Source of the DNA: Dehalococcoidia bacterium
GTDB lineage: Bacteria; Chloroflexota; Dehalococcoidia; Lucifugimonadales; UBA3495
DNA: 64,000 bases
NCBI GenBank assembly: GCA_034420475.1
Contig: DAOULH010000025.1
Location: forward strand, 1,593-65,592
Direction of reading: 5' to 3'
Position numbers and translations under genes: made by a program. The notes under the pieces were generated by a model. The model had not been told where the DNA came from. It saw only the letters and a program-made list of their open reading frames with translations, and ran no database searches. Positions 10,574-26,855 of this stretch are shown one piece after another (the stretch's first letter is position 1; every line of letters starts with the position of its first letter).

Positions 10574-10584
10574 GTGTGACGTCG

Positions 10585-12165: not shown

Positions 12166-12263
12166 GCGGTGGCGATTTCGGTCGACTGGTAGGGTTCCGT
12201 GATGATGTTGGAAGTGCAAGGTCTGATGTCTGGCCGCGGCACTGGAGGGCGTGTGCGGCGGCC

Positions 12264-12671: not shown

Positions 12672-13199
12672 CTATTCGACGATGCTCTGTCGGTATGGTG
12701 GTGAGGAAAACCTCTTGGGGCTTCTGATGTGCCTCTTGATGGTCGGGCTTGGTGACGTGTTCAACGTAATCTCCAATGTTAGGTGGCAATCTGGTGCGTC
12801 GGGGTGCAAGAATATCGCGATCGCTGCCTGCTGGGTTTCGTATGTGATATGTCGTTGCCAGCGGCCTGTACGCTGGGTTATTGGAATGATTTCTCCAGTC
12901 TCAATCTGGTCATGATCTATCACTTCTCCATGGTCCAGATGATGCCGACGGCGCCAGTTGCTCCGCGTTCGCTTGATTGTGGCTTTTGTGAACACCCAAT
13001 CCGGGCGGTTGGATTCCGGCTCGAAAGTGATGTACAGGTCACGTTCTCCTGTGTCGGACCATCCGTGTGATATGGAGAGCCTGGGCCGGGCCTGAATTGC
13101 TGAAATCTGCTGAGTTCTGAGGCTGACCCACAGGGAGCCGGCAGCAAAAAATGCTGCGATTGCGGCGAAAGCGATCGAAAGGATTTCCAAGGAAAGCAT
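12672..13199 (-). CDS. hypothetical membrane-anchored protein, 175 aa
   Basis: N-terminal hydrophobic helix LSLEILSIAFAAIAAFFAAGSLWV. Lies in a lower-GC segment. No motif recognised. Confidence 0.45.
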   Translation of the reverse strand: MLSLEILSIAFAAIAAFFAAGSLWVSLRTQQISAIQARPRLSISHGWSDTGERDLYITFEPESNRPDWVFTKATIKRTRSNWRRRHHLDHGEVIDHDQIETGEIIPITQRTGRWQRHITYETQQAAIAIFLHPDAPDCHLTLEITLNTSPSPTIKRHIRSPKRFSSPPYRQSIVE

Positions 13200-13631: not shown

Positions 13632-14111
13632 TTAGGGAGTTGTGGGCCGCTTCATGAAAACTGCCGCTGTCCCGTATTGGTCGCCCTCGATGCACTCCAA
13701 ATTGTCGTGTTCAATGTCAACACCGTCAAATCCCATCTTGCTGGTCCATTTTTGAGAAGGGAGTTGCCGGCACGCATGAGTCGGGTAATCGTCCTTCACG
13801 AAGATGGCCACTTTCAGGTAGCCATCTTCGGATTCCGGGTTGTCGCACGGCACGTACCCGGTGCTTGTAAAATACTCGACGATGGCTTCGACTGATTCGT
13901 CGTTGCGGATGCCGTCGGGCCAGGTAACCTCTGGTTCCGTCATTACACCCTCTGCACCACTGGGCCAAAGGTGCTGATTTTCGATCCCGGCAGCCCACGC
14001 CACGCAGTTGTACGCGCGTGACGCAGGGCTGGTGACCCTGTGATTGTCGGGCCCTAAACGCGGAAAGTATTGCAACGGGTGTCTGGAGGATTCCGGTCTA
14101 GGCGTAGCCAT
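13632..14111 (-). CDS. papain-fold (CHAP/NlpC-P60-like) candidate protein, 159 aa, coupled to the DISARM-like operon
   Basis: The ATG at 14111 overlaps the last 14 nt of the 1821-aa gene. Candidate Cys (AYNCVAWAAG) and His (PTHACRQ) motifs are in the usual Cys-then-His order. Confidence 0.55.
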   Translation of the reverse strand: MATPRPESSRHPLQYFPRLGPDNHRVTSPASRAYNCVAWAAGIENQHLWPSGAEGVMTEPEVTWPDGIRNDESVEAIVEYFTSTGYVPCDNPESEDGYLKVAIFVKDDYPTHACRQLPSQKWTSKMGFDGVDIEHDNLECIEGDQYGTAAVFMKRPTTP

Positions 14112-17100
14112 TGTCCCGCCCCCATTGCAGCCATGCTTCGTCGTTGAGCGGCGGACTGCCTTTGGCGGATTCGGGAACGGGATTAGCTCCGGTAAGGGTG
14201 CGTAGCGCTGGGTACCACCATCCGCCGTTGTCTTTCATATCCTGCAGGATGAAAGGAATGACGGGTTTCCCCATGGCGATGATTTGCTGATATGCGTGGT
14301 GTCCGGCGATGGCTCGGGGCGACGACAGGCCGGCTGTTTCTGCTCGCCATTCGGTTACGAGTTTTGAGAATTGTCCGCGCAGCGACGCCGTATGTCCGTT
14401 GGTCTCGGCAATTGGGATGAACACGTGCGGGTACTCCCTGAGTTGTTCGATGATTGGTCGGTCATACCTGATGGCGATGACCCCAAAGCCAAAATCCTGC
14501 AACTCTTCACGGGTGTGACTGTCGGCTCTTTGCCGGTCAGGGTCGTCGTGGTGCGGGCCGTCGATGAAAATGCATATGCCCGGACGATTTTCCCGCTCGT
14601 AGTAGAAGTCGGGTTGGACCAGGACTTTCGATGAAGGGCGGTTCTGCGCGCTGTCGGGCAGACGCATTCCGTTGTCCCGCAGCGCTTGGAGGAATTCCCT
14701 TTCCAGCGTCGAGTTTGGGTCAGTGAGATTCATCAGCCGTTGGTATTGTTCGTCGTAGTCTGGCTCTTGTTCCAGCTTGGTTGTTGATGTCGCCAACAAC
14801 CGCAGGTAGTCCAGAATTTTGCGGCGGTCGATCAGCCGGTGTTCCAGTTGGTTGGAGTAGGTGAGCAAGCACTCATAGCAGGCTGAGACGCAGGCGGTTA
14901 TCTGAGCGTCATCGCCGTTGCCTGATGGGTCCTCGTGGCAAAGTCTGATGGCCATGCGGGCTACTGCGGAGAAGGCGTTGGGTTGAGTGACCAGGTGTTC
15001 CCAGACTCCGATGCCGCCTTCGGCGGCTTCCCAAAATATCATGCGGCGATGCTCGTTCTCGCCTATGAGCTCGGCGGAGATTTCCTGATCTTCAACTTGG
15101 TAAACGAACTGTATCGCGCGCTTGATGGCGTGGAGCAGGGTAACCTCGAATTCCGCCGAGGAATTCTCACTGTGGTGTTTCAGGAAAAGAACGTTTCTGG
15201 AGTCCTGTACGTAGGGCCTTACGCCCGATATCGTTGCTGGAACGCCAAGGTCGGAAATCGTTTCGTCCTCGCCGTTTCGAGCCTGCCAACGGCCGGTCGT
15301 TGGGTCAACTCTGAACCCGGGTTCCTCTTCGTTGCTCTGACGGAAGCCGTTGTTGATGCGCCAAAGGCGGGTTCCAGGAGCGTACTGGGCGGTGAGGATA
15401 ATTTCTTCGTCCGCGGACAGCACTTCAGCTGACAGACTTCGGCCTAGACCGAAGTTGAAGTGGGTGGTGACACGGTATCCGTTCCGAACTCGCTCCTCTT
15501 CCTCGGAAGAGATCCGTTCGCGCCTTCTGGCACGCATGGTGGGCTGTTCCAGTAGCTTCTGGATGTAGTCCGAGGATCCATCCAGCCTGGTCCCGCAATT
15601 CAGGCAGAGTTCCAGGTCGGCGTCAGCCCCGTCGTGGGCGTAACCGCAGTTTTGGCAGAGGCGTGCACGCCTGAAGGCTGCTTCGAAGCCTGATGGCGGC
15701 ACGATGGCGGCGTCGATCCGGTACTTCCGCCCCTCGTGATAAACCTGATTGCCGGGAGCGAATTCAGTGAGCCCGAGGAAACGTGGGCGGTCGATCATTT
15801 GGGTGGATTCTCTCATCGGCACGGATACGCGCACGGGTAGCCTGGGGAAGTTGTACCCGGGCAGGAATCCTTCGCTGGCGAGGTAGCGGTACGGGTAAAA
15901 ATCGGATTCTTCCTGTCGGTTGGTCCGGTTTAGCAGCAGGTCGATTTCTCGACGAGCTCCCCGTTCTCGGTGTTCAGCCTGCTGTTTGGCCGATCGGGTA
16001 GCATTGGGATCATCCATCTCTCTTCTGGCGTCGTCGCGTTCGTCGCAGGCTGCTTGATACAGCTCGCGCCACCGTAGGAAAGCCGCGTCGAACTCATCGG
16101 GCGCGGCGCGGAGCGTGTCATTGACCCAGTTGTGGGAGAACCAGGGAGCGTACTGGACTTCCGGTGTACGGTCGATGATGTTCTGTGCTCGTTGGACTGC
16201 CTGCTGGAAATAACGTTCTCTGCGGATTCCTTCGAACTCGGCGGCGAGGTCCTCCTTGATGGGGAAGCTGGGGTCATTCAGGTCGAGGATTTCCTGCATT
16301 CCGCGGCCCAAAGCGATGCCCGTGGTGGCGAGCCAGGTTGAATAGAGGTGGGCCTTCAGGAGTTCCTGATTACGCAGATCCATCCGAGCCGGTTTAACCG
16401 CGCCGGAGATCATTTCATGGCGCCGTCCGAAGTAATACTGATCGTGGGCATTACCCTGGGCCGCGAACGCAACGATAAGTGCTGGCCTGCCCCCGCGACC
16501 TGCGCGACCGCTGCGTTGGGCATAGTTGGCCGGCGTTGGCGGTATGTTTCGCAGGTGTACTGCGTCCAAGTCACTGATGTCCACGCCCAGTTCCATGGTG
16601 GGTGAGCAAAAGAGGGCGGGAAGTGTTCCTTCTCTGAACTCCCTCTCGCGGTCTTCGCGGTCCTTAGCGCTGACCTGGCCAGAGTGAGGTTGGGCTAGGA
16701 TGCCGCGCAATTGGAGCGATCCTCGGTCGTAGAGGTTGGTGAAGTAACTGTTTGGTTGTTGCGTTGCACGGGTCTGACGTCGGAGGTGCAGAGATCGACT
16801 CCGCACCGGGTCGGGACTTGCGGGCGTGGCGTTGCCGGCGACCCATTGCATTCCGGCTGCCAGTAGTCGCACTCCGCGCGCTGCGCCGTTGTTATCGTTT
16901 ACTACGGACAGGAACTGCCCACGGAGTTGTTCGACGATACCGTTGACCAAGGCCTCGCCTTCTGCAACCGATAGGTTTTGGTCAATGCCCCAGGTGTGTT
17001 GGGACCGCAAGTATCGAAGGATCGCGGAACGAGCTCCCAGGCTCATAACGGCCCGCCCATTGCCTTCGTAACGGGTGCGCTGCTTGCCTGGCAGAAGAGC

Positions 17101-19563
17101 GAGACCCGGCCTAGCCAGGATGTCGTTCTCCTCTAGTCGCCAAGGGTCTTTCAGCCACTGATCCGCTCGGTGCGTCAGACTACGTTGAGCGTCTGTGGTC
17201 AACGGATTGGCGTCGATGACGAGGTTCATCCGCAGGTGGTCCAGAAAAGCTTTCAGGACATTCTCGCGCCGGTTAGCATCAGCGTCGGCGATTACCGGTA
17301 AGGGCTGCCATCGGTGATGCTCCAAGGCTAGTTGATCCAGTCCGGGGTACGCGATGCGCAAAAGGCCAGTCTGTTCAAGATTGGGTTGCGTTATCCGCCA
17401 CCCGCGGCTCAGGTCTTCGAGCAGCAGGTACTCCAATAGATCGACCATGGCCCGCTTGCTCTGGTCATATCCAGGCCCGCTGTCGACGGGTTGTAGCAGA
17501 AAGTCGTTGGGTCGGAGTTCCAGGGCGTCAAATACTTTCGGACCCACTTGGTCGAAGGTAAGTTGACCGTTGCGGCGTAGTGCCGAGACTACGCCGGCTC
17601 GCAACATGGCCACTTGGACAAAGTCGTTGAGGTGTCCCGCTTGCAAGGATGCGTCCTGTCGGTTGTCGGTGAAGCTCAGGGCCTTGGCTTCACCGGTTGG
17701 CAGGCCTTGACCTGCCATGCCGGATACGGCGGCGTTTACGGAAATGGTCGTTGCTGTGGAACGGCCGGTCTGGCTCAGTGAGGAGAGTTTGCGGTATTCG
17801 CCTTGCCGGCGGTCATAGACCGCGCGGCAGCGGAGGCATATCAGGAAGGGTTGGGGCTGATACCAACCGAAGACGGCGCCATTTGCGCCTGGTGATTCCT
17901 CTTCCTTGAGCGTTGACCCACTCGTGGTGGGATCCGTCAGCGCACCGTTGGCGGTGGCGGCGTATTTATGTGGAATGAATTGTGCGTAATCGGATTTGAC
18001 AGCCCGGCCTGATCGACGTTCGTTGAACCACTCCTCGGGGAGTTCGTCGGGGTCGCCTGCCCAGATGCCATCGGTGTCCAGGGCGAAGAATCCTCCCTCG
18101 CCTTGGATGCTCTCATCTGCGGCGCCGACGGTTGGAGAGCGCGGCAGGAGCAGTTGCTGCCCCTCAACTTGAGTGAGGATGACCAAGTAATATTCTTGAC
18201 CGCATTCGCGGCAGAAGGCGAGGGGGAATAGCAAGCGCTCGTCGTCGAGCCGGTACTGGCCGTCCATGGTGAACTGCCGGGTTTCAGCGTGTTCGAGGGT
18301 GGCGGAAACGCTGCCACCCGAGGAAAGCCATTGGTGCAGTCTGAAGGCTAGGACGGGTTCTTGTCCTTCAGAAAACGATTGGCTTCCGACGTCCAGTATC
18401 CCTTGCAACTGCTTTCCACATTGTTCGAGTGGAAGGCGGGTTTGTTCGCTGAGGCGGCGTGTGGCATCAGCGAATGTCTCCGGCCGGCGGCGCACTAGGC
18501 GGTCGCCGTGGCTGGTAATGCCGAAGGCTTCTTCCACCCATGCGGTGAGAGGATGGGTTTTCACGGCTTGGGGGGTTGGGACCGGTAGTGGCAGCTCTAC
18601 CGCCGCTCGTAGTTCCGCTTCACCTTGCGGTGTCGGAACTTCGGCGACGTGGCGCAGGGTTTCGTCCACGACGTTGGTTGAAGGTATTTCTTGGCCAAAG
18701 AAGTTGGAGGCGAATCGTGCGACCGTTGCTTTCTGCTCTTCGCGCGTGATGTTTTGGTTCCCGTTGGAAGCTATGGTTGCGCTGGTCGCGATGGTTTGCA
18801 GTTCTCTGCCTGCCGCTTCCTGGAGCCGTCGCGTGAGCATGGCGACGTCGGCGCCTTGCCGGCCCCGGTAGAAATGAAGTTCGTCCATTACCAGGGTTTG
18901 CAAATTGCGGGTTGCAGTTTGAAGCATCGGGCGTTCGCTGGGTCGAAGCAGGAGGTATTCGGCCATCATGTAGTTGGTCAGCAGGATGTGTGGTGGTTCC
19001 TGCTGGATGCGATTTCGTTCGTCCTCACTGGTTTGCCCGGTGTAACTGGCGAAACGCACTGGCGAGTCGGGCCAGTTGCGAGCTTTGAAGCGTTCCAGTG
19101 CCTCAAGCTGGCTGTTGATGAGGGCGTTCATCGGGTAGATCAGTAGAGCCCTCACGGAGTGATGCGACGGTTCGTTGCGGATGATGGCGTCGAAGATGGG
19201 CAGGAGGTAGGTCAGGCTTTTGCCGGATCCGGTGCTGGTGGTGACGACATAGGACTCCCCCTTCAAGCCGAGATCCAAAGCTTCGCGCTGATGCTGGTAG
19301 AGCTGGAGTTCAGGCCCAAAGAACTTGGCGGTTTGCCCGGTCAACAGGCCTTGCTCGGCCAATTGGCGCAGGTTCAGTTCCATTTCGAAGGCCGGGTTTA
19401 GCTGGAGCACTGCGTCTGGCCACAGTGCGCCTTTGCCGAGCATCTCCGCCACGTAATCGTCGATTCGCGGGTCCAGCACTTGGACGAAACTCTGCAAGTA
19501 GTCTTGGTATTCGGAGACTACGGAGTCTTTCAGTTGGAATACGTCCAGCGGCATGATGCTCAC
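14098..19563 (-). CDS. DrmA+DrmB-like fusion (DExH helicase + DUF1998, DruE-like architecture) with C-terminal Vsr/DUF559-like nuclease module
   Basis: Helicase: TSTGSGKSLTY, VMDELHFY, QRSGRAGRGG. DUF1998-type Cys ribbon: CQNCGY...CLNCG and ACYECLLTYSNQ. Nuclease-like: VQPDFYYE...ICIFIDGPHHD...GVIAIRYD. Start is 1 nt after the methylase stop. Confidence 0.85.
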   Translation of the reverse strand: MSIMPLDVFQLKDSVVSEYQDYLQSFVQVLDPRIDDYVAEMLGKGALWPDAVLQLNPAFEMELNLRQLAEQGLLTGQTAKFFGPELQLYQHQREALDLGLKGESYVVTTSTGSGKSLTYLLPIFDAIIRNEPSHHSVRALLIYPMNALINSQLEALERFKARNWPDSPVRFASYTGQTSEDERNRIQQEPPHILLTNYMMAEYLLLRPSERPMLQTATRNLQTLVMDELHFYRGRQGADVAMLTRRLQEAAGRELQTIATSATIASNGNQNITREEQKATVARFASNFFGQEIPSTNVVDETLRHVAEVPTPQGEAELRAAVELPLPVPTPQAVKTHPLTAWVEEAFGITSHGDRLVRRRPETFADATRRLSEQTRLPLEQCGKQLQGILDVGSQSFSEGQEPVLAFRLHQWLSSGGSVSATLEHAETRQFTMDGQYRLDDERLLFPLAFCRECGQEYYLVILTQVEGQQLLLPRSPTVGAADESIQGEGGFFALDTDGIWAGDPDELPEEWFNERRSGRAVKSDYAQFIPHKYAATANGALTDPTTSGSTLKEEESPGANGAVFGWYQPQPFLICLRCRAVYDRRQGEYRKLSSLSQTGRSTATTISVNAAVSGMAGQGLPTGEAKALSFTDNRQDASLQAGHLNDFVQVAMLRAGVVSALRRNGQLTFDQVGPKVFDALELRPNDFLLQPVDSGPGYDQSKRAMVDLLEYLLLEDLSRGWRITQPNLEQTGLLRIAYPGLDQLALEHHRWQPLPVIADADANRRENVLKAFLDHLRMNLVIDANPLTTDAQRSLTHRADQWLKDPWRLEENDILARPGLALLPGKQRTRYEGNGRAVMSLGARSAILRYLRSQHTWGIDQNLSVAEGEALVNGIVEQLRGQFLSVVNDNNGAARGVRLLAAGMQWVAGNATPASPDPVRSRSLHLRRQTRATQQPNSYFTNLYDRGSLQLRGILAQPHSGQVSAKDREDREREFREGTLPALFCSPTMELGVDISDLDAVHLRNIPPTPANYAQRSGRAGRGGRPALIVAFAAQGNAHDQYYFGRRHEMISGAVKPARMDLRNQELLKAHLYSTWLATTGIALGRGMQEILDLNDPSFPIKEDLAAEFEGIRRERYFQQAVQRAQNIIDRTPEVQYAPWFSHNWVNDTLRAAPDEFDAAFLRWRELYQAACDERDDARREMDDPNATRSAKQQAEHRERGARREIDLLLNRTNRQEESDFYPYRYLASEGFLPGYNFPRLPVRVSVPMRESTQMIDRPRFLGLTEFAPGNQVYHEGRKYRIDAAIVPPSGFEAAFRRARLCQNCGYAHDGADADLELCLNCGTRLDGSSDYIQKLLEQPTMRARRRERISSEEEERVRNGYRVTTHFNFGLGRSLSAEVLSADEEIILTAQYAPGTRLWRINNGFRQSNEEEPGFRVDPTTGRWQARNGEDETISDLGVPATISGVRPYVQDSRNVLFLKHHSENSSAEFEVTLLHAIKRAIQFVYQVEDQEISAELIGENEHRRMIFWEAAEGGIGVWEHLVTQPNAFSAVARMAIRLCHEDPSGNGDDAQITACVSACYECLLTYSNQLEHRLIDRRKILDYLRLLATSTTKLEQEPDYDEQYQRLMNLTDPNSTLEREFLQALRDNGMRLPDSAQNRPSSKVLVQPDFYYERENRPGICIFIDGPHHDDPDRQRADSHTREELQDFGFGVIAIRYDRPIIEQLREYPHVFIPIAETNGHTASLRGQFSKLVTEWRAETAGLSSPRAIAGHHAYQQIIAMGKPVIPFILQDMKDNGGWWYPALRTLTGANPVPESAKGSPPLNDEAWLQWGRDNGYA

Positions 19564-19564
19564 C

Positions 19565-22500
19565 TTAGTGGTTCAGGTTGGGTGGGTGGCCTTGGGCCAG
19601 CAGATCGTAGGCTTGCAGGACATAGCGCTGGGTGCGGTATTCACCGAACTGTCGCTCTTCGTTGCGTTTCAGTCCGGGAAAAGACTGTGACGGCTCTGGG
19701 GCGTCAAGGATCCACTCTAAATCTTCGCGTTCCAGCTGGTAAAGATGGGCGTAAATGGCGTCCAGTTCGCACTTGAGCCGGTGTCGGCGGTCTTCGTCCC
19801 AGGCGAAGGGCGGGCCGTCGTAGCCCAGGTCTTGGGCGAATGACTGCAAGTCCCATGCAGTGTAGGTTAGTTCCAATGCTCTGGGCACAACGAGTTCGAT
19901 CCAGGTATGGCCTGGCGGTGCGGTTTCGATGTAGACATCGGGCGGTAGCACGGGCAGTTGCTTGACGATGAAGAAGCTCATGTGGGTGCCGCCCACGGAA
20001 AGGCGGGCAGCCCAGTCAAATGGCAGGCTGTTCATGTTGGCAAGCACGAGTACCGAGGCAACAGCGCGCTCGTTCTGGTAGTCGAGGACTGGAGCATTGT
20101 TTCCAACGCCATGGCCGGGTACGTTGGCAGGGACCATGGTGCTGGCGTTGGTGCTGTTCGTGATGTCCCGAAAGACTTGATGCCAACCTGCGTAATTCAT
20201 GCGCGCAATGGGAGCTCCTCCGTCAACGGCGGTTGTTCGTAACAGGGTCGAGATCGAAGTTCGTTGGTCGGTGGCACGGGCGACGTTTCTGAAACCTATG
20301 AACCAATCGTAACTATGGTTGCGGTGTGGCCTACCCCGAACGAGGGAATGACCGACAACATCATGGTGCGTTCGTTGGTTGCGTTGGTGATGTCCCGGAG
20401 AACGAGTTGCGAGCCAGCTCGGCAAGTTTGTAGAACGTCTGATCGGGGGGGGGGGGGTAGAAGTTAAATCGGATTCCGATGCACCAAGCCGCTGAGAGAC
20501 TTCCTCTGCGGGAACCCAGTATCTGGGGATCACGACTGCACTAGGGTCAGCTTTTTCGTGGCTTGCCATTTCCCTGGCGTTGCCGGCGGAACGCGCGCGT
20601 TCATCTACGTCTTCGAATGTGGCGAAGCGGTGGTCGTACTGGTGGAACAGCTTGGCCTCGTAAAGCGGAAGGTAGCGTTCGTCGCCCTTGACGAATTCGT
20701 TGCCGTCCAAGTGCCAACCGTTTAGTTCCAGCTGTTCCCGGGTTTGGAACAGGCCCGAGTCGTTGGACATATGGAACATAGCGGAGAATCTAACACCCCA
20801 CGGGTTGCGCTCTGGCTCGCCGGCTTGGGCTTCTTTCCAGAATACCCCGGCTCGTCGGTATAGTTTGGCGGCGATGTCCGCATCCCGCCGGGTGCGAAAG
20901 ACGGGGCAGGTGCGCGTGTTGGGGTTGAACAATGCAAAGTCTGCTGGCTGAAGGATGAAGCGGCGGCCATCGTCTTGGAGTTGCTCAGTGCGGTATAGGA
21001 AGAAGGCAAATTCTGCCTGATGCGATGGGCGATCTGTTCCAGTCATGGTCAACAGGCAGAACTTAATTCGGCTGTCTATACCTGGGAAAACACGCTCGCG
21101 GTTTTCGAAGTCGTACAGGCTCACCAGTGATTGGTGGTTCACGAGGTCGGCGAAAAACACCTTCGTCGTATCGTCGGTGGCTATCCCAGAAGGGACGATC
21201 ATGCCTGCTTTGCCGGAGGGATTGCAGATGCCTCGCGCGGTTTCGGCGAAGATGGAGTAGGTGTTGACATCACCTCGTCCGGTCATCGGAAAACGCTCGC
21301 TGCCACGGACGAAGCGGCTGATTGATTCTGCCTGGTGTAGGGCGTCAGAAAATTCCTGCGCTAAGTGTGGGTTCTCTTGAGGTAACGCCTGGATGAGTCT
21401 GTCCCTGGCAGCTTTGTTGGGGGCGTCGGCAATTTCTTGGTCCCTGGTTTCGAAGAATTCCTTCTCCTGCAGCTTGATCCGCTCCCACGGTGGATTTCCC
21501 AACACGACGTCGAATCCGCCGGTGTGGAACACATCGGGAAATTCGAGGGGCCAGTGAAAGAATGTGTTGGCTTGTGAAGCAGCGATCGCTGCGGCTTCGA
21601 GTTGGGGTTGCGTGGCCCGATTCGCCAGGGCCTGACGGATGTTATCCGTGGTGGGAACACGGGCCGGGCTACCCGATGCCTGCGGTTGTAGCGGGGCAAA
21701 GAAAGCGTAGGTCCAAAGGTCGCAGGCAACCTTTTGTTGCCACCAATGGGTATCTGGGCCCCGCAGCTCTTCGTAGAGGTTCTCTTTGGCCTGCACTTCG
21801 GCAGGGCTGTGTTCTTCCAATTCAGTGAAAGCCGTCCATTCGGCTGCGATGGCATCGACGTCTGGTTGATCAGCGAACATCGCGGCCTGCCCTGGTCGCT
21901 CCCGTCTGTTGCGCCTACGGAAGTATGTGGCTTCGGTTCTATCGTCACCGGTGACGGCCTTGTAGGCGTCGTCGGGAATGCCGGTGTGTAGGACGTCCAA
22001 GTCCTTGACGCCCACCAGGCTGTCGCCGCATTTGATGTGGTGGTCGAGGAACCCAAGTGGGAAGCCTGCGGCGTGACTTTCGATCCACAGAGCGACTTTG
22101 CACAGGTCCACCGCCAGGGGGTTCTTGTCGACGGCGTAGATGCAGTTGCGCACGACGTCGCGGAGGGCGGTGCGGTACTCGGTAGGTGGTGGTTCTTCCT
22201 CGCTGGAGCGTGCGCGCGCGAGCTCTCGGGCGATGCGCCGGGCGGCGGCCAGTAGGAAGTGGCCGGACCCGGCGGCGGGGTCGCATACTTTGAGTGAAAG
22301 GAGGGCCTGTTCCTTGGCTTCCGCAGTTCGGCTGTCATGCAGTCTTTCGTTGATGACTGGAACGAGGGCACTGTCCACAAGTTCGCGGACCAGTTCTGGC
22401 GGCGTGTAATAGGATCCTGTCTGTTTGCGCTCGGTGCCGGGCGCCAACTGGAAGTTGGGTCTTCGACCAGTTACTTCGTTTTCGGCGAGTACCAGCGGGC

Positions 22501-23779
22501 GGTAGTCCAATAGGCTTTCGTAAACGGAGCCGAATTCCTCGACGTCTAGGTGGGCGTAGTTGACGCGGCGTACGACATCACCATCGCGGAAGGTGGACAG
22601 GTTGCGCAACGCATTGAGGAAGTCTTCGTTGGGGCAAACGGCGTTTTCGAGGTCCCGACAGGTGGACTCCTTGAACAATTCACCATTCATGGGGAACAGG
22701 TTCAGGGCGTCGGCCGCGGCGGGATTGCGGAATAAACGGAACGTTTGGGCGAGGCCTTGCCAGAGGTCGGTGTGGGTGTCGCCGGCATACCGGCGTTCTG
22801 CGCGCTCTCGCAAGCTGGCGACGCTGTAATAGCGGTGGTAGATGTTGTGGCGCTCGGTGTCGTCGCCGGTGGTGAAGAGTATCTTCCTCTCCTCGCTCAC
22901 CATCAGGAAAAGCAGGCGGTACACGAAGCTGAGCAGTTGGCGATAGTAGGCGTTCTCCGTCAATCTCCCGTTGCGGAAGGATTCACGGAGCGCGGCGTTT
23001 TCTGGGTGGCGCAGAAGAGCGGCGCCCAGGATTTCGAGGGCGTTTTTGACGCCATCCCGGAGTTTCTCACGGACCCTGCCGCCCTCTTCGACTCCTTGAT
23101 TGTAGTAGCTTTCCAGGAGGCAGTCGTGGGGTTCTGCACCTGGTTGTGGAAAACGTGTGGAGTGGACCAGCCGGTAAAGCGCGGTGAACTCTGCGTAGGC
23201 GTTACCTTCCAGCATCGCCTGGAGGTCGAATTCAAGGTAGGTCGGCTTCGATAGTCGAGCGCTGTCCCGTAGCAGGCGCAGCTTGGCACCGTTGGTGACG
23301 ACGCCCCAAAGGGTCTCGGAGCGGTTCAGGTATTCCTGTACCAGCGCGTGGGGGGAACGGCGGGTGGTGCGGCCGCGTTGATCCAAGGTCTGGTCCGGAG
23401 AGACGACGTGGACCGGCGGCGCGTGTTCGTCGCTGTAAGCGAAATGGGAAATCGGGAAGGTCGTCCCGCCGAGGTCTATGCCGGTTCGTTGAAGCTCCAG
23501 AGGCGGAAATCCGAGGATCTCAAAGAAGGGAATCGCCCAGTCTTGGCGAGTGAGCGTGGTGAGGTTTTGCCGGGACCGGTCTCTGCGCCGGTTGAAAGCG
23601 TCCCAGCGCAGAGCGGCGTCGCTGAAGCCGCTCTGGATTTCGTCCAGGAGAGTGCGGTTGGGGCGCAGCCCGAAGTCTCTGGCTGTCTGGCCTGCGACGT
23701 TGCTGTTGGGTTGGGAAATTCGTTCCAGCAGGTCAGGATTGAACAGTCCGCCTTCAAGGCTGATGGTTGAGTAATTCAA
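19565..23779 (-). CDS. DrmMI-like N6-adenine DNA methyltransferase, 1404 aa
   Basis: PglX/DrmMI-like N-terminus (LWGVVTNGAKLRLLRD). GSYYTPPELV, VCDPAAGSGHFLLAAA, VLGNPPWERIK. Contains a C13 tract (G13 on plus, 20445-20457). Confidence 0.85.
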   Translation of the reverse strand: MNYSTISLEGGLFNPDLLERISQPNSNVAGQTARDFGLRPNRTLLDEIQSGFSDAALRWDAFNRRRDRSRQNLTTLTRQDWAIPFFEILGFPPLELQRTGIDLGGTTFPISHFAYSDEHAPPVHVVSPDQTLDQRGRTTRRSPHALVQEYLNRSETLWGVVTNGAKLRLLRDSARLSKPTYLEFDLQAMLEGNAYAEFTALYRLVHSTRFPQPGAEPHDCLLESYYNQGVEEGGRVREKLRDGVKNALEILGAALLRHPENAALRESFRNGRLTENAYYRQLLSFVYRLLFLMVSEERKILFTTGDDTERHNIYHRYYSVASLRERAERRYAGDTHTDLWQGLAQTFRLFRNPAAADALNLFPMNGELFKESTCRDLENAVCPNEDFLNALRNLSTFRDGDVVRRVNYAHLDVEEFGSVYESLLDYRPLVLAENEVTGRRPNFQLAPGTERKQTGSYYTPPELVRELVDSALVPVINERLHDSRTAEAKEQALLSLKVCDPAAGSGHFLLAAARRIARELARARSSEEEPPPTEYRTALRDVVRNCIYAVDKNPLAVDLCKVALWIESHAAGFPLGFLDHHIKCGDSLVGVKDLDVLHTGIPDDAYKAVTGDDRTEATYFRRRNRRERPGQAAMFADQPDVDAIAAEWTAFTELEEHSPAEVQAKENLYEELRGPDTHWWQQKVACDLWTYAFFAPLQPQASGSPARVPTTDNIRQALANRATQPQLEAAAIAASQANTFFHWPLEFPDVFHTGGFDVVLGNPPWERIKLQEKEFFETRDQEIADAPNKAARDRLIQALPQENPHLAQEFSDALHQAESISRFVRGSERFPMTGRGDVNTYSIFAETARGICNPSGKAGMIVPSGIATDDTTKVFFADLVNHQSLVSLYDFENRERVFPGIDSRIKFCLLTMTGTDRPSHQAEFAFFLYRTEQLQDDGRRFILQPADFALFNPNTRTCPVFRTRRDADIAAKLYRRAGVFWKEAQAGEPERNPWGVRFSAMFHMSNDSGLFQTREQLELNGWHLDGNEFVKGDERYLPLYEAKLFHQYDHRFATFEDVDERARSAGNAREMASHEKADPSAVVIPRYWVPAEEVSQRLGASESDLTSTPPPPIRRSTNLPSWLATRSPGHHQRNQRTHHDVVGHSLVRGRPHRNHSYDWFIGFRNVARATDQRTSISTLLRTTAVDGGAPIARMNYAGWHQVFRDITNSTNASTMVPANVPGHGVGNNAPVLDYQNERAVASVLVLANMNSLPFDWAARLSVGGTHMSFFIVKQLPVLPPDVYIETAPPGHTWIELVVPRALELTYTAWDLQSFAQDLGYDGPPFAWDEDRRHRLKCELDAIYAHLYQLEREDLEWILDAPEPSQSFPGLKRNEERQFGEYRTQRYVLQAYDLLAQGHPPNLNH
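20445..20457. repeat. 13-nt G homopolymer (C13 on the coding strand) inside the methylase gene
   Basis: Direct count in gatcGGGGGGGGGGGGGtag. Encodes TPPPP in the drawn frame. Confidence 0.95.
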
Positions 23780-23780
23780 T

Positions 23781-26648
23781 TTACACCCCCGATGGCGTCA
23801 ATACGTAGCAGCCGATGATGTCTGGAGGACGGTGGGGTGTCACGGTGGCGTGTCGTCCGGGGACGGCTTGACGGAGCCGGGTGTGAGCTGCTTCCAAAGT
23901 TGCTGCCCGGTGGGTGACGATTTCGGTGTCCCATCCATCACTTAAGCGGTCTAGCGCCCAACTTACGTGTTCGGCACGCTCCTCCGGCGATAGGTTGGCC
24001 ACCGGTTGTGCATCGGCGACGAGGCGTAGTATGCGATTTTGGCTGTCGTCGGTGTGGTCACCAGTCCAGTTTAGGCCGTCTGCCCGGCTGGAGAAAGCGG
24101 CGACGACGACTTCCTCGGCGAATTGTTGGCTTTCGGCACTCTGATCTGAGGTCTGTATCAGAAAACGGAGCCGTAGGAGAAATACTGCGGTCCTGCGTTC
24201 GACCGCTGGGGTAACGATGGCGCCTGCCCTGGCGAAAAGGGGTTCTTGTGCCTGCAGTGCCTTGGCCAGGACGGCGTCGGCGGCGGTGCTGACCACTGGG
24301 TGGTTGCGCCCGATGAGGGCTACGCCGTTCTGTGGTACGCCTTCGAAAGCTACGGTCATTGGGAAATTGAGGCGGTTATCGCGATCTGCGATGTGGTCTT
24401 TAAGGTCGCCTGGGGTTAGCCTGAATACGCCCGCTCGGTTGGTGGGGTTGAGTTCGCCGTTGAATCTTTGCAGAGCATTGGTGAGGAATCTTTTTACGTC
24501 GGCGGCACTGCCGAGGACTGGTTCCATTTCCTGGAGTTCGTTGGATATCGCGTCTGGGTGGATGCCATGTTGGGCGAAGTATGTGCGGGTTCGGTCTTCC
24601 CGATCGGCGACCTCATCCCACGCTTGGTGCAATCGGCTGACTTCAGCGGTTTGTAGCGGAAGGGTTGCTTGTCTGCCTTGGGTTCGTCCGCGGAGTAGAA
24701 CGCTGTCGACCAGGGTGTTGACCACCTGTTCAGGCTGCACTGGAACCGGGACCGTGATGCCCAAACGTTGGCGGATGGTTTGTGCCTTTCGCAGGAGAAC
24801 GTCGAGCACCACGAGGTCCACTTCATTGTCCGCACCGTAAAGGAGGACGGTTTTGATTGTTGGTTTGGGTTGACCATAGCGGTCAACTCGGCCCTCTCGC
24901 TGCTCCAAGCGGTTGGGGTTCCAGGGCAAGTCGTAGTGGACGACCGCGTCGTAATGGTCCTGGAGGTTGACGCCTTCGCTGAGGCAATCGGTTGCCACCA
25001 GCACTCGTGCGGGGTGTTGGGCCAGGTCGAGGACAATCTCCTTGCGCTGTTCGCTGTCGCCGTCGTTGCCGGTGACCGCGCTGACGCGGAGACCTGGATG
25101 GCGCGATGTCAGCTCGTTCCTGATCTGTTCTGCGACGTAATAGGCGGTTTGGATGAATCGGCAGTAAACGATGGGGCGGTATCCGTCATCGAGGAGTTCG
25201 GATACCGCGGAAATAGCCTCGCGGACTTTCGCATCATGCTCTGGTCCGGCGAGCGTGTTGGCGCGCCGTAAGAAAGCGCTGAGGCGCCGATCTTCGCTGG
25301 AGGACGTTGTGTCGTCGTCTTCCAGCGTGATTGCGGGTACGTAGTCGGCGGCCTGGTCTTCCTCGGCAGAGTCAACTATCTGGGTGCCGAGGAGATCGTC
25401 GGGGATCTGCCCTCCATTTGCGGGATCGTCCTCGTGCGTCCCGTTGTGGGCCGGGCGCCTGTTTTCAAGGGCCGCTCGTGCTGCCGAGGGGCTGGATAGC
25501 ACGCATCGCAAGATGGACAGCGCTGCCCAGTAGCGGACTCGCTGGCGTTGTTCAGCCATGCCGCTGGTGTCAACGTACTCTCGGCAATAGGCCAGGATGT
25601 CTTGATAAAGGCGGTGGTAATCAGCCGACATACGGTAGCTGCGTTCCACGGCCACGCGGTCTGGGAAGGGCGTCTCTACGTCGAGCCATCGTTTCAGGTC
25701 GGCGCGTTTGCGCTGGATGATGTGGGGCGTCAACTCCGCGCGGGGCAGGTCGTCGTCGTTAGCGGAATCGAACTCGGGGTTCAGCAAGCCGAGTAGTGAC
25801 TGGAAACTCTGCTCTATCCCACTGTGTGGGGTTGCGGTGGCCAGGATGACGTGGCGGCGCGGATCGATGGCGAGGTCTTTGGCAAGGGCATAACGCTGTT
25901 GCTGAGCAGCGCCGCGGTCGCTTCTGGGGCGCGCGGCGGTGTGGGCTTCGTCCACGATGACCAAATCGGGTGCGTTGGCTAGAAAAAGGTGCCTGTTGCG
26001 GTCGGATTTCGCGAAGTCGATGCTGACTACCATGTGGCGGTAATGCTGGTATAGCGAGACATCGTTTCGCGGCAAAGCGCGCTCCAGCTTGCTGATGGTG
26101 GAGGACTGGATGACCGCGGCGTCGATATTGAATTTGGTTCGGAGCTCTTCGTCCCATTGCTCGCACAGATGTGGAGGGCATAGAACGCATAAGCGGCGGG
26201 CGGTGCCCCGGTCCAATAATTCTCGGGCGATCATGCCGGCCTCGATGGTTTTTCCCACGCCCACGTCATCGGCGATCAAGAGGCGGACCGGGTCCAGGCG
26301 CAGAGCCATGATCAGAGGGACGAACTGGTATGGCCGTGGCGTTACGGATATACGACCCATCGACCGGAAAGGGCCGGCTCCGCTGCGTAGGTTGAGACGT
26401 ACGGCGTCCCTGAGCAAACTGGCTCCAGAAGAGTCTCCGGCTTTATCCGGGTCGGGTGGCAGGTACTGCGTCGGCTTGAGGGCGTCTGGCTCTAATGGCA
26501 GGTAGATGCCGATGGTATCGGTCTCGGTGCCGTCAATGGGTCGGAGACGAACGATTTCGGGTTCGTCTTGAGGCAATACGACCCAGTCCCGGTTGCGGGC
26601 TCGAGCCAGTTGTCCTGGCGCCCATTCGTATGCAGCTGTCGCTGTCAC
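23781..26648 (-). CDS. DrmD-like SNF2-family helicase
   Basis: RPYQ, ADDVGVGKTIEAG, VIVDEAHTAA, HYDLPWNPNRLEQREGRVDRYGQ. The frame is open to 26813, but that start lies upstream of a TGCTACAAT promoter-like box. GTG at 26648 has AAGGTGA 4 nt upstream. Confidence 0.85.
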   Translation of the reverse strand: MTATAAYEWAPGQLARARNRDWVVLPQDEPEIVRLRPIDGTETDTIGIYLPLEPDALKPTQYLPPDPDKAGDSSGASLLRDAVRLNLRSGAGPFRSMGRISVTPRPYQFVPLIMALRLDPVRLLIADDVGVGKTIEAGMIARELLDRGTARRLCVLCPPHLCEQWDEELRTKFNIDAAVIQSSTISKLERALPRNDVSLYQHYRHMVVSIDFAKSDRNRHLFLANAPDLVIVDEAHTAARPRSDRGAAQQQRYALAKDLAIDPRRHVILATATPHSGIEQSFQSLLGLLNPEFDSANDDDLPRAELTPHIIQRKRADLKRWLDVETPFPDRVAVERSYRMSADYHRLYQDILAYCREYVDTSGMAEQRQRVRYWAALSILRCVLSSPSAARAALENRRPAHNGTHEDDPANGGQIPDDLLGTQIVDSAEEDQAADYVPAITLEDDDTTSSSEDRRLSAFLRRANTLAGPEHDAKVREAISAVSELLDDGYRPIVYCRFIQTAYYVAEQIRNELTSRHPGLRVSAVTGNDGDSEQRKEIVLDLAQHPARVLVATDCLSEGVNLQDHYDAVVHYDLPWNPNRLEQREGRVDRYGQPKPTIKTVLLYGADNEVDLVVLDVLLRKAQTIRQRLGITVPVPVQPEQVVNTLVDSVLLRGRTQGRQATLPLQTAEVSRLHQAWDEVADREDRTRTYFAQHGIHPDAISNELQEMEPVLGSAADVKRFLTNALQRFNGELNPTNRAGVFRLTPGDLKDHIADRDNRLNFPMTVAFEGVPQNGVALIGRNHPVVSTAADAVLAKALQAQEPLFARAGAIVTPAVERRTAVFLLRLRFLIQTSDQSAESQQFAEEVVVAAFSSRADGLNWTGDHTDDSQNRILRLVADAQPVANLSPEERAEHVSWALDRLSDGWDTEIVTHRAATLEAAHTRLRQAVPGRHATVTPHRPPDIIGCYVLTPSGV

Positions 26649-26764
26649 TAGATCACCTTCAGGTGGCGGCGCGGGCGGCTCGTTGTCGTCGCGGACCGCC
26701 AGGCAGTTACGATGTGCTGAGCCGTGGGATGCGATGGGGTGAGGGGAGGAGGCCGGAATCCGCT

Positions 26765-26855
26765 CGCGCGTTGCTCGTATGTCGGGCGGATTGTAGCACC
26801 AGCCGCTTGTCACATACAGTGCCGCCGGCGGGTATGGAGGGTGGAAGTTGTGGTG
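26765..26855. repeat. ~90-bp direct repeat, copy 1 (contains TGCTACAAT on the minus strand at 26790-26798)
   Basis: About 80% identical to 28362-28452. The shared core is GCGGATTGTAGCACCAGCCG. Confidence 0.75.
26790..26798 (-). promoter_or_regulatory. extended -10 promoter candidate (TGnTACAAT) for the DISARM-like operon
   Basis: Minus strand reads TGCTACAAT about 140 nt upstream of the GTG at 26648. The same box recurs in repeat copy 2, and TGnTATAAT boxes flank dnaN/alaX. Confidence 0.45.

Follow-up and report, generated by a model that had tools for sequence, protein, structure and literature searches.

Sequence analysis of the window, the whole 64,000-nt stretch of DNA considered here, indicates that it likely contains an ARMADA type I anti-phage defence operon that has captured an X/DUF7689 cassette and carries a proposed, hypermutable C13 switch in its methylase gene, armB. 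The locus comes from a Chloroflexota/Dehalococcoidia-like genome. Its basic gene mix is already known, and the X/DUF7689 cassette and the armB repeat are features of this copy. A first-pass annotation of the same DNA had proposed four coupled genes, and direct reading of the ORFs and their junctions confirmed both the genes and their positions: four tightly packed ORFs, all on the minus strand (Table 1).

Table 1. Features of the operon, with window coordinates, strand and identifying evidence.
Feature	Coordinates	Strand	Evidence or remarks
armA, SNF2/BrxHII/RapA-like helicase, 955 aa	23781..26648	-	Pfam, PADLOC, BLAST-type identity, orthologue
armB, PglX/DrmMI-like N6-adenine DNA methyltransferase, 1404 aa ('long' state)	19565..23779	-	Pfam, PADLOC
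Homopolymer in armB, proposed slipped-strand phase-variation tract	20445..20457	-	C13 on coding strand, G13 on + strand
Copy 1 of [FL]R.I..AT.ERT segment, QLVLRDITNATNERTMMLSVIPSFGVGHTATIVTIGS	20296..20409	-	Frame other than current armB frame; stop at end
Copies 2 and 3 of [FL]R.I..AT.ERT segment, WFIGFRNVARATDQRT... (aa 1159) and WHQVFRDITNSTNAST... (aa 1199)	20066..20305	-	
ArmB C-terminal domain, ~205 aa, 'long' state only	19565..20185	-	L004 ORF match, tblastn
armC, YprA-family DExH helicase-nuclease, 1818 aa from ATG 19554 (1821 aa from GTG 19563, 14098..19563)	14098..19554	-	
ArmC RecA1/DExH domain	18763..19296	-	Walker A GSGKS, DELH box; Pfam DEAD aa 90-267, E = 2.2e-26
ArmC DUF1998/MZB zinc-binding module, aa 1477-1566	14866..15135	-	PF09369, E = 7.8e-8
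ArmC Vsr/DUF559-like PD-(D/E)xK nuclease domain	14419..14706	-	LEREF...QPDFYY...CIFIDGPHHD...D..R
X domain, ArmC C-terminal ~100 aa, all-helical	14101..14400	-	GLSSPRAI...NGGWWYPAL...NPVP...AWLxWGxxNGY
DUF7689 gene, 159 aa, 14-nt overlap with armC	13632..14111	-	PF24738, E = 1.8e-32

The maximal armA ORF spans 23781..26813 (-), with a likely GTG start at 26648, preceded by GAAGGTGA; this start is supported because the orthologue in locus L004 aligns with the 955-aa product over its full length (76% identity). The armA stop and the armB start are separated by one nucleotide (TAA-a-TTG at 23781/23779), as had been described, and the armB stop and the start of the armC ORF read TAA-g-GTG at 19565/19563. 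The second 1-nt gap that had been reported does not hold equally well: ATG 19554 is the more likely start of armC, since it is preceded by AGGTGA, the database copy of the protein is 1818 aa long and homologues align from MxLDVF, and the armB-armC gap is therefore 10 nt. The 14-nt overlap between armC and the DUF7689 gene (14098-14111) stood as described.

Profile searches corroborated the assignment of the first two genes to an SNF2 helicase and an NPPW methylase. ArmA matches Pfam SNF2-rel_dom, ResIII and Helicase_C and is recovered by the PADLOC models for DpdE (PDLC02853, 4e-187) and DrmD (2e-95), with an NCBIfam DrmD score of 367 bits, below the cutoff of 610; its identity to ArmA of E. 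coli ATCC 8739 is 27% (E = 1e-47). ArmB presents motif I as DPAAGSGHFL and motif IV as NPPW (around aa 763), and matches Pfam Eco57I and N6_Mtase and PADLOC DrmMI (1.3e-87); it is 75% identical to the L004 orthologue and 25-29% identical, in a patchy alignment, to E. coli ArmB.

ArmC has more than 7000 homologues and matches Pfam DEAD, Helicase_C and MZB, as well as the PADLOC DruE models (5e-93) over partial stretches only, the best matches being DruE3 models. Its Walker A and DELH motifs are invariant in an alignment of 37 homologues, PF09369 scores 33.3 bits against a cutoff of 24.2, and the Cys columns of the DUF1998 region are likewise invariant (alignment A4), in accordance with the earlier reading of one DruE-like protein carrying both a DExH helicase and DUF1998. 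The DUF1998 module and the invariant CxxC pairs upstream of it correspond to the OB-CON-DUF1998 'canopy' of YprA helicases. The profile evidence for the Vsr/DUF559 module that had been assigned to this protein is weak (E = 0.05 in a single-sequence search and 0.23 to PDB 3r3p; PF04480 matched by 16 of 21 homologues, best E 8.6e-4), but its catalytic-type motif is invariant. No PLD gene was found by profile searches among the scanned ORFs, as had been claimed for the region following the fused protein.

The first-pass annotation had also described two extra modules, an additional C-terminal domain in the fused protein and a coupled, predicted papain-like ORF downstream. Both were read correctly, but they are really one captured cassette: X and DUF7689 constitute a widespread two-gene module, with X directly upstream of DUF7689 in 73 of 73 distant metagenome loci. 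X is missing from ArmC homologues of ~1700 aa and is homologous to stand-alone proteins of 95-165 aa; its AlphaFold model (pLDDT 93.4) is composed of six helices, and it matched neither PDB folds nor Pfam families. The DUF7689 family comprises 4442 clusters at 50% identity, with N35, C36 and H135 invariant and H112 almost so. The predicted fold (pLDDT 87.6) is papain-like or NlpC-P60-like, with Cys36 at a helix N-terminus and the conserved His112 and His135, and its best Foldseek matches in the PDB, all weak (E of at least 0.046), include Josephin deubiquitinase, NlpC/P60 hydrolases and a papain-like toxin.

At the sequence level, a conserved X/DUF7689 cassette has been captured at the 3' end of armC. 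X now ends ArmC as a domain fused in frame, and DUF7689 is translationally coupled to it by a 14-nt overlap identical to that of the free-standing cassette; loci L008 and L009 present X ahead of DUF7689 with the same overlap as the window. Apart from the window, just two ARMADA I loci, both close relatives, carry the module, and all three X-bearing ArmC proteins are followed by DUF7689. Its absence from 80 other ARMADA I loci, its overwhelmingly free-standing occurrence and its presence near prophage genes and other toxin genes would also fit a selfish toxin-antitoxin or addiction cassette that landed at the 3' end of armC by chance, and a relic locus (L093), in which the break falls precisely at the Vsr/X junction, points to a recombinationally active island. 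The in-frame fusion would then be accidental, without a role in ARMADA defence beyond perhaps stabilizing the island. We regard this explanation as possible but distinctly less likely, given that X occurs in three independent in-frame fusions, each at the C-terminus of a restriction- or defence-type DNA enzyme: ArmC, a Type ISP-like methylase (L007) and a protein with N6_Mtase and Methylase_S domains (L143). ArmC relatives at 72-80% identity have also kept the fusion, and the conservation of X at least equals that of the rest of ArmC (between the window and L001, 91% for X, 85% for DUF7689 and 80% for ArmC overall).

Following capture, X may bind and restrain DUF7689 much as an antitoxin does its toxin, as suggested by the gene arrangement, by analogy and by the FitA-like RHH antitoxin domain found on one of the 33 X proteins scanned, no other of which has a recognisable antitoxin DNA-binding domain. 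If so, ArmC would carry a latent second effector whose activity is tied to the state of ArmC. One natural protein (P0302) holds X and DUF7689 in a single polypeptide, which is unusual for a toxin-antitoxin pair and counts against such a reading. The EcoprrI Type I R-M enzyme holds a latent toxin, the PrrC anticodon nuclease. The X/DUF7689 arrangement resembles such latent toxins and type II toxin-antitoxin modules in its small upstream gene, which overlaps that of a downstream putative enzyme, in the attachment of the partner domain to a restriction- or defence-type enzyme and in a possible back-up role if the primary defence is inhibited. It differs from them in that X has no known fold, in the rarity of the RHH domain and in the occurrence of the single-polypeptide form.

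The first-pass annotation gave the anatomy of the methylase correctly but overlooked a simple-sequence-repeat switch inside its gene. No other homopolymer in the 64 kb comes near the C13 tract in length, the next being one C9 and G6 runs. In-silico changes in tract length show that C13 encodes 1404 aa, C12 or C15 1160 or 1161 aa, and C11 or C14 1138 or 1139 aa. Downstream of the tract, copy 1 of the repeated segment forms the C-terminus of a would-be 'short' ArmB and is crossed by the current frame as a 46-aa stop-free linker, and copies 2 and 3 lie in the current frame, which continues into the C-terminal domain. This domain has no match in Pfam but is kept across ARMADA I loci (tblastn segment Bc), and in relatives in other frame states it is a separate ORF of 189-244 aa, as in L004, where the 220-aa product is 73% identical.

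The same site holds repeats in 11 relatives, with units of 1, 4, 5 or 8 nt and never a multiple of three: C13, C12, (GACAC)36, (AGCC)27, (GACAG)10, (CAGA)21, (AGAC)15, (CAGA)30, (GCAG) in at least 13 copies, and 8-nt units, in tracts reaching 180 nt. Across loci, two or three segment copies in differing frames follow the repeat, and in L006 and L059 they are spread over all three frames, one in each; the repeat is absent from two three-copy loci, L016 and L013. Copy 1 is conserved at the protein level in relatives independently of the upstream reading frame in use, and 3 of the 11 scorable relatives are in the long state, 5 in the short state and 3 in the truncated state.

The armB repeat and the out-of-frame copies thus bear the sequence signature of a phase-variable ArmB C-terminus. 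Gain or loss of one base in the C13 tract would toggle ArmB among three forms: long with the C-terminal domain (the present state), short and ending at copy 1, and truncated. We infer that such toggling could bring about stochastic phase variation of methylation, of the whole defence or of both, the effect of switching being a guess. That the region is instead no switch, and reflects a homopolymer artefact of assembly or sequencing or the decay of the methylase into a pseudogene in some lineages, appears improbable. Assembled homopolymer lengths are error-prone, the contigs of L001-L003 end at the repeat, and armB is out of frame with its C-terminal part in 8 of the 11 scorable relatives; an artefact, however, is at odds with differing repeat units at the same codon position in independent assemblies, and decay would not keep the one-copy-per-frame layout of L006 and L059. 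Furthermore, in 13 of 13 three-copy loci no stop interrupts the long-form frame between the repeat and the C-terminal domain, and copy 1 is open and conserved in the same loci, which amounts to dual-coding conservation.

Phase variation of methyltransferases is known from pglX of the Streptomyces coelicolor Pgl/BREX defence system, which has a poly-G tract, and from Type III mod 'phasevarions'. As in phase-variable defence methyltransferases, the proposed armB switch relies on a simple-sequence repeat within the gene; its unit length is not divisible by three, and the frame shifts when the tract changes length. It differs in that several armB frames would give a structured product (long or short), beyond an on/off choice, in the variation of the repeat unit among orthologues and in its host, an uncultivated Chloroflexota lineage. 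Repeat-mediated 'C-terminal sequence switching' has been described in Helicobacter canadensis (PMC2823697).

ARMADA was described in September 2025 (Bell et al. 2025, PMC12458937), explicitly as the 'missing link' joining DISARM to Druantia, and its set is given there as an SNF2 protein, a PglX-like methylase and a fused YprA helicase ending in a Vsr nuclease. The window architecture, including the fused OB-CON-DUF1998 and C-terminal Vsr, fits the published type I description, and Table S1 of the same article lists as 'ARMADA Type I helicase' three proteins (P0083, P0084 and P0100) that are 52-53% identical to ArmC at 94% coverage. The E. coli ARMADA II proteins that have been tested experimentally include homologues of ArmA, ArmB and ArmC, and ArmC resembles E. 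coli ArmC more closely than it does E. coli DruE. The first-pass annotation was upheld in treating the locus as distinct from both canonical DISARM and canonical Druantia. Its further claim, that the mix falls outside the described classes, fails: an undescribed class that joins DISARM class 1 parts (DrmD, DrmMI) to a DruE-type core from Druantia, with the nuclease swapped, is in accord with the labels given to the three large proteins by the 2023 PADLOC models (DpdE/DrmD, DrmMI, DruE), with the lack of a complete DISARM or Druantia gene set and with an NCBIfam DrmD score below cutoff, but it is very improbable in the face of the identical combination named ARMADA in 2025, the catalogued type I homologues of the core protein and the calling of ARMADA II by DefenseFinder in a 2026 paper. 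Scarcely credible is a Druantia type III-B-like system, a kind whose DruE sometimes bears a Vsr nuclease, that adjoins an unrelated SNF2 helicase and methylase by chance. Despite the DruE3 matches of ArmC and the Vsr domain of some Druantia III-like helicases (Bell et al., PMC12458937), the DruE matches are partial, the similarity to E. coli DruE is confined to helicase motifs, ArmC homologues are listed as ARMADA I, the locus lacks DruH and every other Druantia partner, and in 56 related loci the SNF2 helicase, methylase and YprA-type helicase genes form a conserved, tightly linked trio.

As an ARMADA type I operon, the locus shares with the published description of that type a BrxHII/RapA-like SNF2 helicase, a PglX-like NPPW methylase, a YprA-like helicase with OB-CON-DUF1998 and Vsr, the lack of ArmD and an ArmC of ~1700 aa once the add-on is discounted. 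It differs in the X domain and coupled DUF7689, in the armB repeat with three out-of-frame copies and in presenting the A-B-C order in Chloroflexota, an order reported as 'reversed' for archaea and cyanobacteria (Bell et al. 2025, bioRxiv 10.1101/2025.09.15.676423; PMC12458937). The 56 complete related loci present A-B-C (32), C-A-B (22) and B-C-A (2). Neither of two ARMADA papers mentions phase variation, and DUF7689 and an X-like domain are missing from the sections of Bell et al. consulted and from its Table S2.

Experimentally tested ARMADA systems are of type II only, validated as armABCD of E. coli NCTC 12900, ATCC 8739 and EDL933. The window resembles them in its A, B, C order, in its homologous proteins (27% for ArmA; 24-31%, patchy, for ArmB and ArmC) and in a toxin-like add-on, ArmD of type II joining a RelE-like domain to a GajB-like helicase. 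In contrast, it lacks ArmD, its fourth gene encoding DUF7689 rather than a UvrD-type helicase; its ArmC is shorter (1818 versus 2113 aa), without the extra inactive EEP and Vsr domains, as is its ArmB (1404 versus 1642 aa). By analogy with DISARM structures and ARMADA type II genetics, ArmB would probably methylate host DNA at adenine, and ArmA (SNF2) and ArmC (YprA helicase) would load on and translocate along invading DNA, which the C-terminal Vsr-type nuclease of ArmC would cut, providing direct, non-abortive immunity.

The window and DISARM class 1 (DrmD, DrmMI, DrmA, DrmB, DrmC) both place an SNF2 helicase and an N6-adenine methylase, in matching order, ahead of a YprA-family helicase function with DUF1998, whereas helicase and DUF1998 are here in one protein instead of DrmA plus DrmB, a fused Vsr-type nuclease is present, PLD DrmC is lacking and the DrmD equivalog falls below cutoff. 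Druantia DruE (types I-III) is likewise a large YprA-family helicase fused to DUF1998 and ending in a nuclease-like domain, but the partners in the window are an SNF2 helicase and a methylase instead of DruH, DruA-D or DruM/F/G, and the nuclease is Vsr-type where type III-A has PLD. The neighbours of the operon in its defence island are a GmrSD enzyme, a Type ISP-like restriction enzyme and an orphan methylase.

The operon consists of four tightly packed minus-strand genes at 13.6-26.8 kb, and direct reading of their junctions confirmed this part of the first-pass annotation. The armA TAA codon at 23781 is separated by one base from the armB TTG codon at 23779, and the DUF7689 gene begins at 14111, 14 nt inside armC. 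At the armB/armC junction, the armB TAA codon at 19565 is followed by a GTG codon at 19563 and by an alternative ATG codon at 19554 that comes after AGGTGA. The ATG is the more likely armC start, because the database copy of the protein has 1818 aa and 37 homologues align from MxLDVF, and the armB-armC spacer is probably 10 nt. The 1-nt armA/armB gap and the 14-nt overlap described previously therefore stand, and the second 1-nt gap, placed between armB and armC, probably does not. The likely armA start has GAAGGTGA upstream and is backed by a full-length alignment with an orthologue. A promoter and terminator scan returned sites no more numerous than those in shuffled controls. The operon lies in a defence island, other members of which are listed with it in the table.

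Genes of the operon, of the surrounding defence island and just upstream of armA, in window coordinates
Feature	Position	Strand	Remarks
armA ORF	23781..26813	-	maximal ORF; likely GTG start at 26648
armB ORF	19565..23779	-	1404 aa in present state
armC ORF	14098..19563	-	1818 aa from ATG 19554 (1821 aa from GTG 19563)
DUF7689 gene	13632..14111	-	159 aa
GmrSD type IV restriction enzyme	3563-5314	-	GmrSD_N + GmrSD_C; Pfam/PADLOC
Type ISP-like single-polypeptide restriction enzyme	5417-10714	-	1765 aa; Mrr_cat_2 + ResIII + Eco57I; PADLOC REase_MTase_IIG at 2e-95
Divergent N6_N4 methylase	10947-11831	+	Pfam/PADLOC
Small HNH endonuclease gene	27460-27885	-	just upstream of armA; PF01844, E = 4e-14

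Pfam searches bore out the domain content proposed in the first-pass annotation. The armA product, read there as an SNF2 helicase, matches SNF2-rel_dom and Helicase_C; the armB product, read as an NPPW methylase, matches Eco57I and N6_Mtase; and the armC product carries DEAD, Helicase_C and PF09369 (MZB/DUF1998) in one 1818-aa ORF, as expected of a fused DExH-DUF1998 protein. Using the 2023 model set, PADLOC labeled the three products DpdE/DrmD, DrmMI and DruE, respectively, the mixture of DISARM- and Druantia-type labels that had been anticipated. The claim that this combination is not one of the described classes did not hold, since ARMADA, described in 2025, already covers it. The hybrid class is hence already in the literature, and this aspect of the locus is ordinary.

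In Bell et al. (2025; PMC12458937), ARMADA is presented as a "missing link" between DISARM and Druantia, with a core composed of a BrxHII/RapA-like SNF2 helicase, a PglX-like methyltransferase and a YprA-like helicase. The YprA-like helicase has a fused OB-CON-DUF1998 region and a C-terminal Vsr-type nuclease, whereas DISARM has separate DrmA and DrmB proteins. According to the same paper, type II has a further gene, ArmD, in which a RelE domain is joined to a GajB-like helicase; this gene is missing from type I, whose helicase gene usually comes first, with reversed order in many archaea and cyanobacteria. Defence by ARMADA II is reported there to need ArmB and its NPPW motif. For type I helicases, the insertions described are BrxA-like, zinc-binding beta-barrel and MarR-like, and the C-terminal nuclease is predicted to be active; phage protection is presented as experimentally tested for type II only.

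To place the locus within this class, we relied on homologues of ArmC named in Table S1 of PMC12458937. A homology search with the 1821-aa protein returned more than 7000 homologues, including P0083 (HZP58428.1), P0084 (HXH21153.1) and P0100 (MBI3979122.1), which align to ArmC at 52-53% identity and 94% coverage and are all named "ARMADA Type I helicase" in that table. The three genes are linked in 56 complete loci among 80 related loci from reference genomes, in the orders A-B-C (32), C-A-B (22) and B-C-A (2). Its nearest relatives are found among metagenome-assembled genomes of Chloroflexota/Dehalococcoidia, some of them sponge-associated or SAR202 bins. The window probably comes from an organism of this kind. 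An alignment of 37 homologues shows invariant Cys clusters in ArmC, and the CxxC pairs C448/C451 and C573/C576 are conserved. No ArmD, PLD, DruH or Dpd biosynthesis gene was found among the ORFs scanned. On all these grounds we assign the locus with high confidence to ARMADA type I, in A-B-C order. As a separate observation, gene orders in ARMADA I loci L013-L092 are seen only as three cyclic permutations, and the published description gives only two orders.

One alternative identity is ARMADA type II, for which the annotated and experimentally studied E. coli ATCC 8739 locus served as reference. Its ArmA is homologous to the window ArmA (E = 1e-47), its ArmB aligns with the window ArmB in patches in which GNPPW is visible, and its ArmC aligns through the helicase and the DUF1998 region into the start of the nuclease domain; a blastn search of armC against 5,426 E. 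coli genomes gave no match. Type II was rejected: there is no ArmD, the gene downstream of armC encodes the 159-aa DUF7689 protein, and the ORFs beyond it (12672-13199 and 12065-12622) gave no helicase match in Pfam, PADLOC or NCBIfam. DISARM class 1 was likewise rejected. Where it has separate DrmA and DrmB proteins the window has a single ORF, which PADLOC DrmA models match at ~1e-14 in the Helicase_C region only; the DrmD equivalog NF038317 of NCBIfam scores 366.9 bits against a cutoff of 610; and no PLD match corresponding to the DrmC nuclease was found in the ORFs scanned in or adjoining the operon, as the first-pass annotation had stated. Druantia types I-III were discarded as well, since DruE models match partial stretches only. 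E. coli DruE has only the helicase motifs in common with the window ArmC, and PADLOC found none of the partners DruH (type III), DruA-D (type I) or DruM/F/G (type II) among the neighbours. Finally, Dpd/BRIGADE was dismissed, with no dpdA/B/C or deazaguanine genes among the ORFs scanned and a score for the NCBIfam DpdE model (197 bits, cutoff 500) far below its cutoff. The best PADLOC match of ArmA is nonetheless the "DpdE" model PDLC02853, which matches over the full length (E = 4e-187), well ahead of the DrmD models. Since this strong match contrasts with the NCBIfam result, PDLC02853 probably takes in proteins of the ArmA type, and a locus annotated with it could be called Dpd when it is in fact ARMADA.

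In the putative Vsr-type region of ArmC, the homologue alignment reveals an invariant QPDFYY...C.F.DG..H...D...R motif, including D...D-G..H. Profile matches in this region are weak: DUF559 is matched by 16 of 21 ArmC homologues (best E = 8.6e-4), and MTES_1575 is also matched weakly, alongside DUF559, in most. The comparison with PDB 3r3p is marginal (E = 0.23), and hhalign places the region in register with the Vsr domain of E. coli ArmC at E = 0.0033 with a probability of 9.6%.

The methylase gene departs from the published picture in the organization of its 3' part. The relatives compared encode a methylase of 1164-1211 aa and a separate ORF of 189-244 aa, versus the 1404 aa of the window ArmB. 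We rejected the view of the latter as a methylase fused with an unrelated small ORF: the small ORF of the relatives proved to be ArmB's own C-terminal domain, split off by the frame state at the repeat. The break falls at a C13 tract (G13 on the plus strand; 20445-20457), which is by a wide margin the longest homopolymer in the 64-kb window. Downstream of it, a conserved ~40-aa segment (motif [FL]R.I..AT.ERT) occurs three times in tandem; copy 1 is in another frame than the current armB and is terminated by a stop, and copies 2 and 3 are in the current frame and run into the C-terminal domain. Varying the tract length in silico gives a 1404-aa product for C13, products of 1160/1161 aa ending in copy 1 for C12/C15, and products of 1138/1139 aa for C11/C14.

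Relatives carry repeats at the same site, namely C13, C12, (GACAC)36, (AGCC)27, (GACAG)10, (CAGA)21, (AGAC)15, (CAGA)30, at least 13 units of GCAG, and two arrays of 8-nt units. Across 11 relatives the unit lengths are 1, 4, 5 and 8 nt, never a multiple of three. Every one of the 13 loci with the multi-copy layout keeps the long-form frame free of stops between the repeat and the C-terminal domain, and in each of them copy 1 is conserved irrespective of the frame in use; L006 and L059 even have a separate segment copy in each of the three frames. Frame states could be scored in 11 loci: three are long, that is, include the C-terminal domain (the window, L016 and L037), five are short, ending in copy 1 (L004, L006, L019, L020 and L059), and three have a shorter, truncated product (L005, L014 and L021). 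In the 46 ARMADA I loci that are more distant, the segment is present once, no repeat occurs, and the gap at this position measures 43-196 nt (~95 nt in most).

At the sequence level, the armB repeat region thus bears the signature of a classic contingency locus combined with multi-frame redundancy, and we consider it likely that the repeat truly serves phase variation. In S. coelicolor, the Pgl system phase-varies through a poly-G tract in pglX. Switching of armB would turn methylation, or the whole defence, on and off or alter its activity. Repeat-driven C-terminal switching is already known as a general idea (PMC2823697), and phase variation goes unmentioned in both ARMADA papers. With its multi-frame layout and a repeat unit that varies among orthologues, armB provides an exceptionally clear example of selection for hypermutable switching, found here in uncultivated environmental bacteria, whereas phase variation is usually studied in pathogens. 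Furthermore, the natural on, short and off ArmB alleles could reveal the role of the methylase and its C-terminal domain in ARMADA I. The C-terminal 411 aa and the N-terminal 460 aa of ArmB had no Pfam match at E <= 10, and a phmmer search of the C-terminal half against PDB sequences returned noise only.

Several other features were observed in armB of related loci. L017, L068 and L079 have an in-frame insertion of ~370-410 nt at the position of window ~20050-20500, with no repeat and one segment copy, which makes it a different insertion at the same hotspot. In L021, the armB interval (8422-9979) contains a G12 tract besides its (AGAC)15 array, and this gene may have two slippage sites. L004 has an extra 224-aa ORF (9274-9948) between the armB C-terminal ORF and armC, with no counterpart in the window and no Pfam match.

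The 3' end of armC holds the second distinctive feature. The "two extra modules" of the first-pass annotation, an additional C-terminal domain and a coupled ORF, are both real, and jointly make up one cassette. Most ArmC homologues have ~1700 aa; the extra ~100 residues, here termed X, occur only in the window ArmC and two relatives (80% and 72% identity), and the same three loci have the DUF7689 (PF24738) gene downstream. Neither X nor DUF7689 was found in any of the 80 related ARMADA I genome loci. Free-standing homologues of X have 95-165 aa. Directly upstream of DUF7689, X is found as a small ORF in L008 and L009 and, in L007, as the C-terminal part of a 1232-aa Type ISP-like methylase, in each case with a 14- or 20-nt overlap. 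A DUF7689 profile scan of metagenomes added 80 distant loci (39-49% identity to the window DUF7689), and in 73 of the 73 with enough upstream sequence the directly preceding ORF encodes X at its C-terminal end, one of these ORFs being a 1049-aa N6_Mtase + Methylase_S protein. In the natural fusion protein P0302, X and DUF7689 form a single polypeptide. These associations show X and DUF7689 to be an obligate pair, and armC has captured this pair at its 3' end, where X has become an in-frame extension of ArmC.

A related genome without ARMADA sheds light on the cassette boundary. Its locus L093 (9946-10362; L094 2229-2645) matches window 14063-14478 and retains only the last 380 nt of armC, starting exactly at the Vsr/X junction, together with 48 nt from the start of the DUF7689 gene; a DUF433 gene comes next. 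The shared pieces have ~90% nucleotide identity to the window, and other pieces of the island are shuffled in L093. Because the relic breaks exactly at the Vsr/X junction, we place a recombination joint at the cassette boundary. The 108-aa X protein P0241 (96% identity) was considered as an unfused ancestor, an idea that was rejected once it proved to be what recombination had left of the 3' end of armC in a related genome.

Structural predictions were obtained for both members of the pair. The X model (pLDDT 93.4) has six helices and no Foldseek match in the PDB below E = 4, and X has no Pfam match at E <= 10. In the DUF7689 model (pLDDT 87.6), the invariant Cys36 starts a helix (36-40) and His112 lies on a strand (109-116); the top Foldseek matches in the PDB are a Josephin deubiquitinase, NlpC/P60 hydrolases and a papain-like toxin, all non-significant (E >= 0.046, TM <= 0.35). 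Neither protein matched PHROGs, PADLOC or NCBIfam. Among 33 X proteins scanned, one has a FitA-like RHH antitoxin domain and one a zinc ribbon, and most N-terminal extensions of X proteins gave no domain match. No mention of DUF7689 or PF24738 was found in the literature searched, and a search for papain-like toxin/antitoxin pairs gave nothing relevant.

As in type II toxin-antitoxin modules, X and DUF7689 are encoded by small neighbouring genes in the same orientation, and the pair is conserved. X might bind and restrain a DUF7689 effector in a toxin-antitoxin-like manner, and its fusion to ArmC would couple that effector to the defence enzyme. The natural fusion protein P0302 gives indirect support to the idea of a toxin neutralised through binding. 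PrrC is held by EcoprrI, and a DUF7689 protein held by ArmC would recall this arrangement, as well as ArmD of ARMADA II with its RelE-like domain. The chief alternative is that X and DUF7689 form a selfish cassette travelling as a passenger. Pure accident, however, sits poorly with three independent X fusions, all to restriction-type enzymes. Whether the pair is functionally integrated with ArmC rather than a passenger is, in our judgement, finely balanced and slightly short of probable. Their repeated fusion to restriction-type enzymes makes X and DUF7689 a candidate toxin-like back-up arm of DNA-targeting defences. The two-gene module was previously unrecognised and is very widespread, with DUF7689 comprising 4442 clusters at 50% identity.

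The ArmC-X fusion with its coupled DUF7689 gene and the probable repeat-driven ArmB switch, both of which have comparative sequence evidence behind them, make the locus a new variant of ARMADA type I. Tentatively, and as a reading that we judge rather unlikely, a Chloroflexota sub-clade of ARMADA I may have added two control layers to a direct-acting defence. The first would be a "gearbox" in armB, a repeat followed by a copy of an essential segment in each usable frame, in which slippage would yield alternative ArmB isoforms with or without the C-terminal domain instead of a simple on/off switch, stochastically reprogramming methylation and immunity. The second would be a latent effector, the putative papain-like DUF7689, held by the helicase-nuclease through the X fused to ArmC and released or activated once ArmC is engaged, or disabled by phage; the same plug-in has been fused independently to other restriction enzymes. 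On this reading, X and DUF7689 would be a new module that serves restriction-type defence systems as an accessory or back-up.

Elsewhere in the window, the second-longest homopolymer is a C9 tract (3041-3049) in a region of overlapping ORFs (2608-3108, minus strand; 3099-3656, plus strand), which could be another slippage site. Two adjacent, overlapping minus-strand ORFs (33133-34401 and 34398-35684) encode paralogous proteins of ~425 aa each, in which only a Sigma70_r4 helix-turn-helix near the N-terminus is recognisable. The window contains no tRNA that would define the island borders. Base composition shifts between positions 1-40000 and 40000-64000: GC skew is strongly positive as far as ~40 kb (between +0.1 and +0.28), AT skew is negative as far as ~36 kb (between -0.1 and -0.33), and past 40 kb both are near zero, while G+C climbs from ~0.59 to ~0.64 along the window. 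This shift may reflect the strand bias of genes or the edge of a foreign island.
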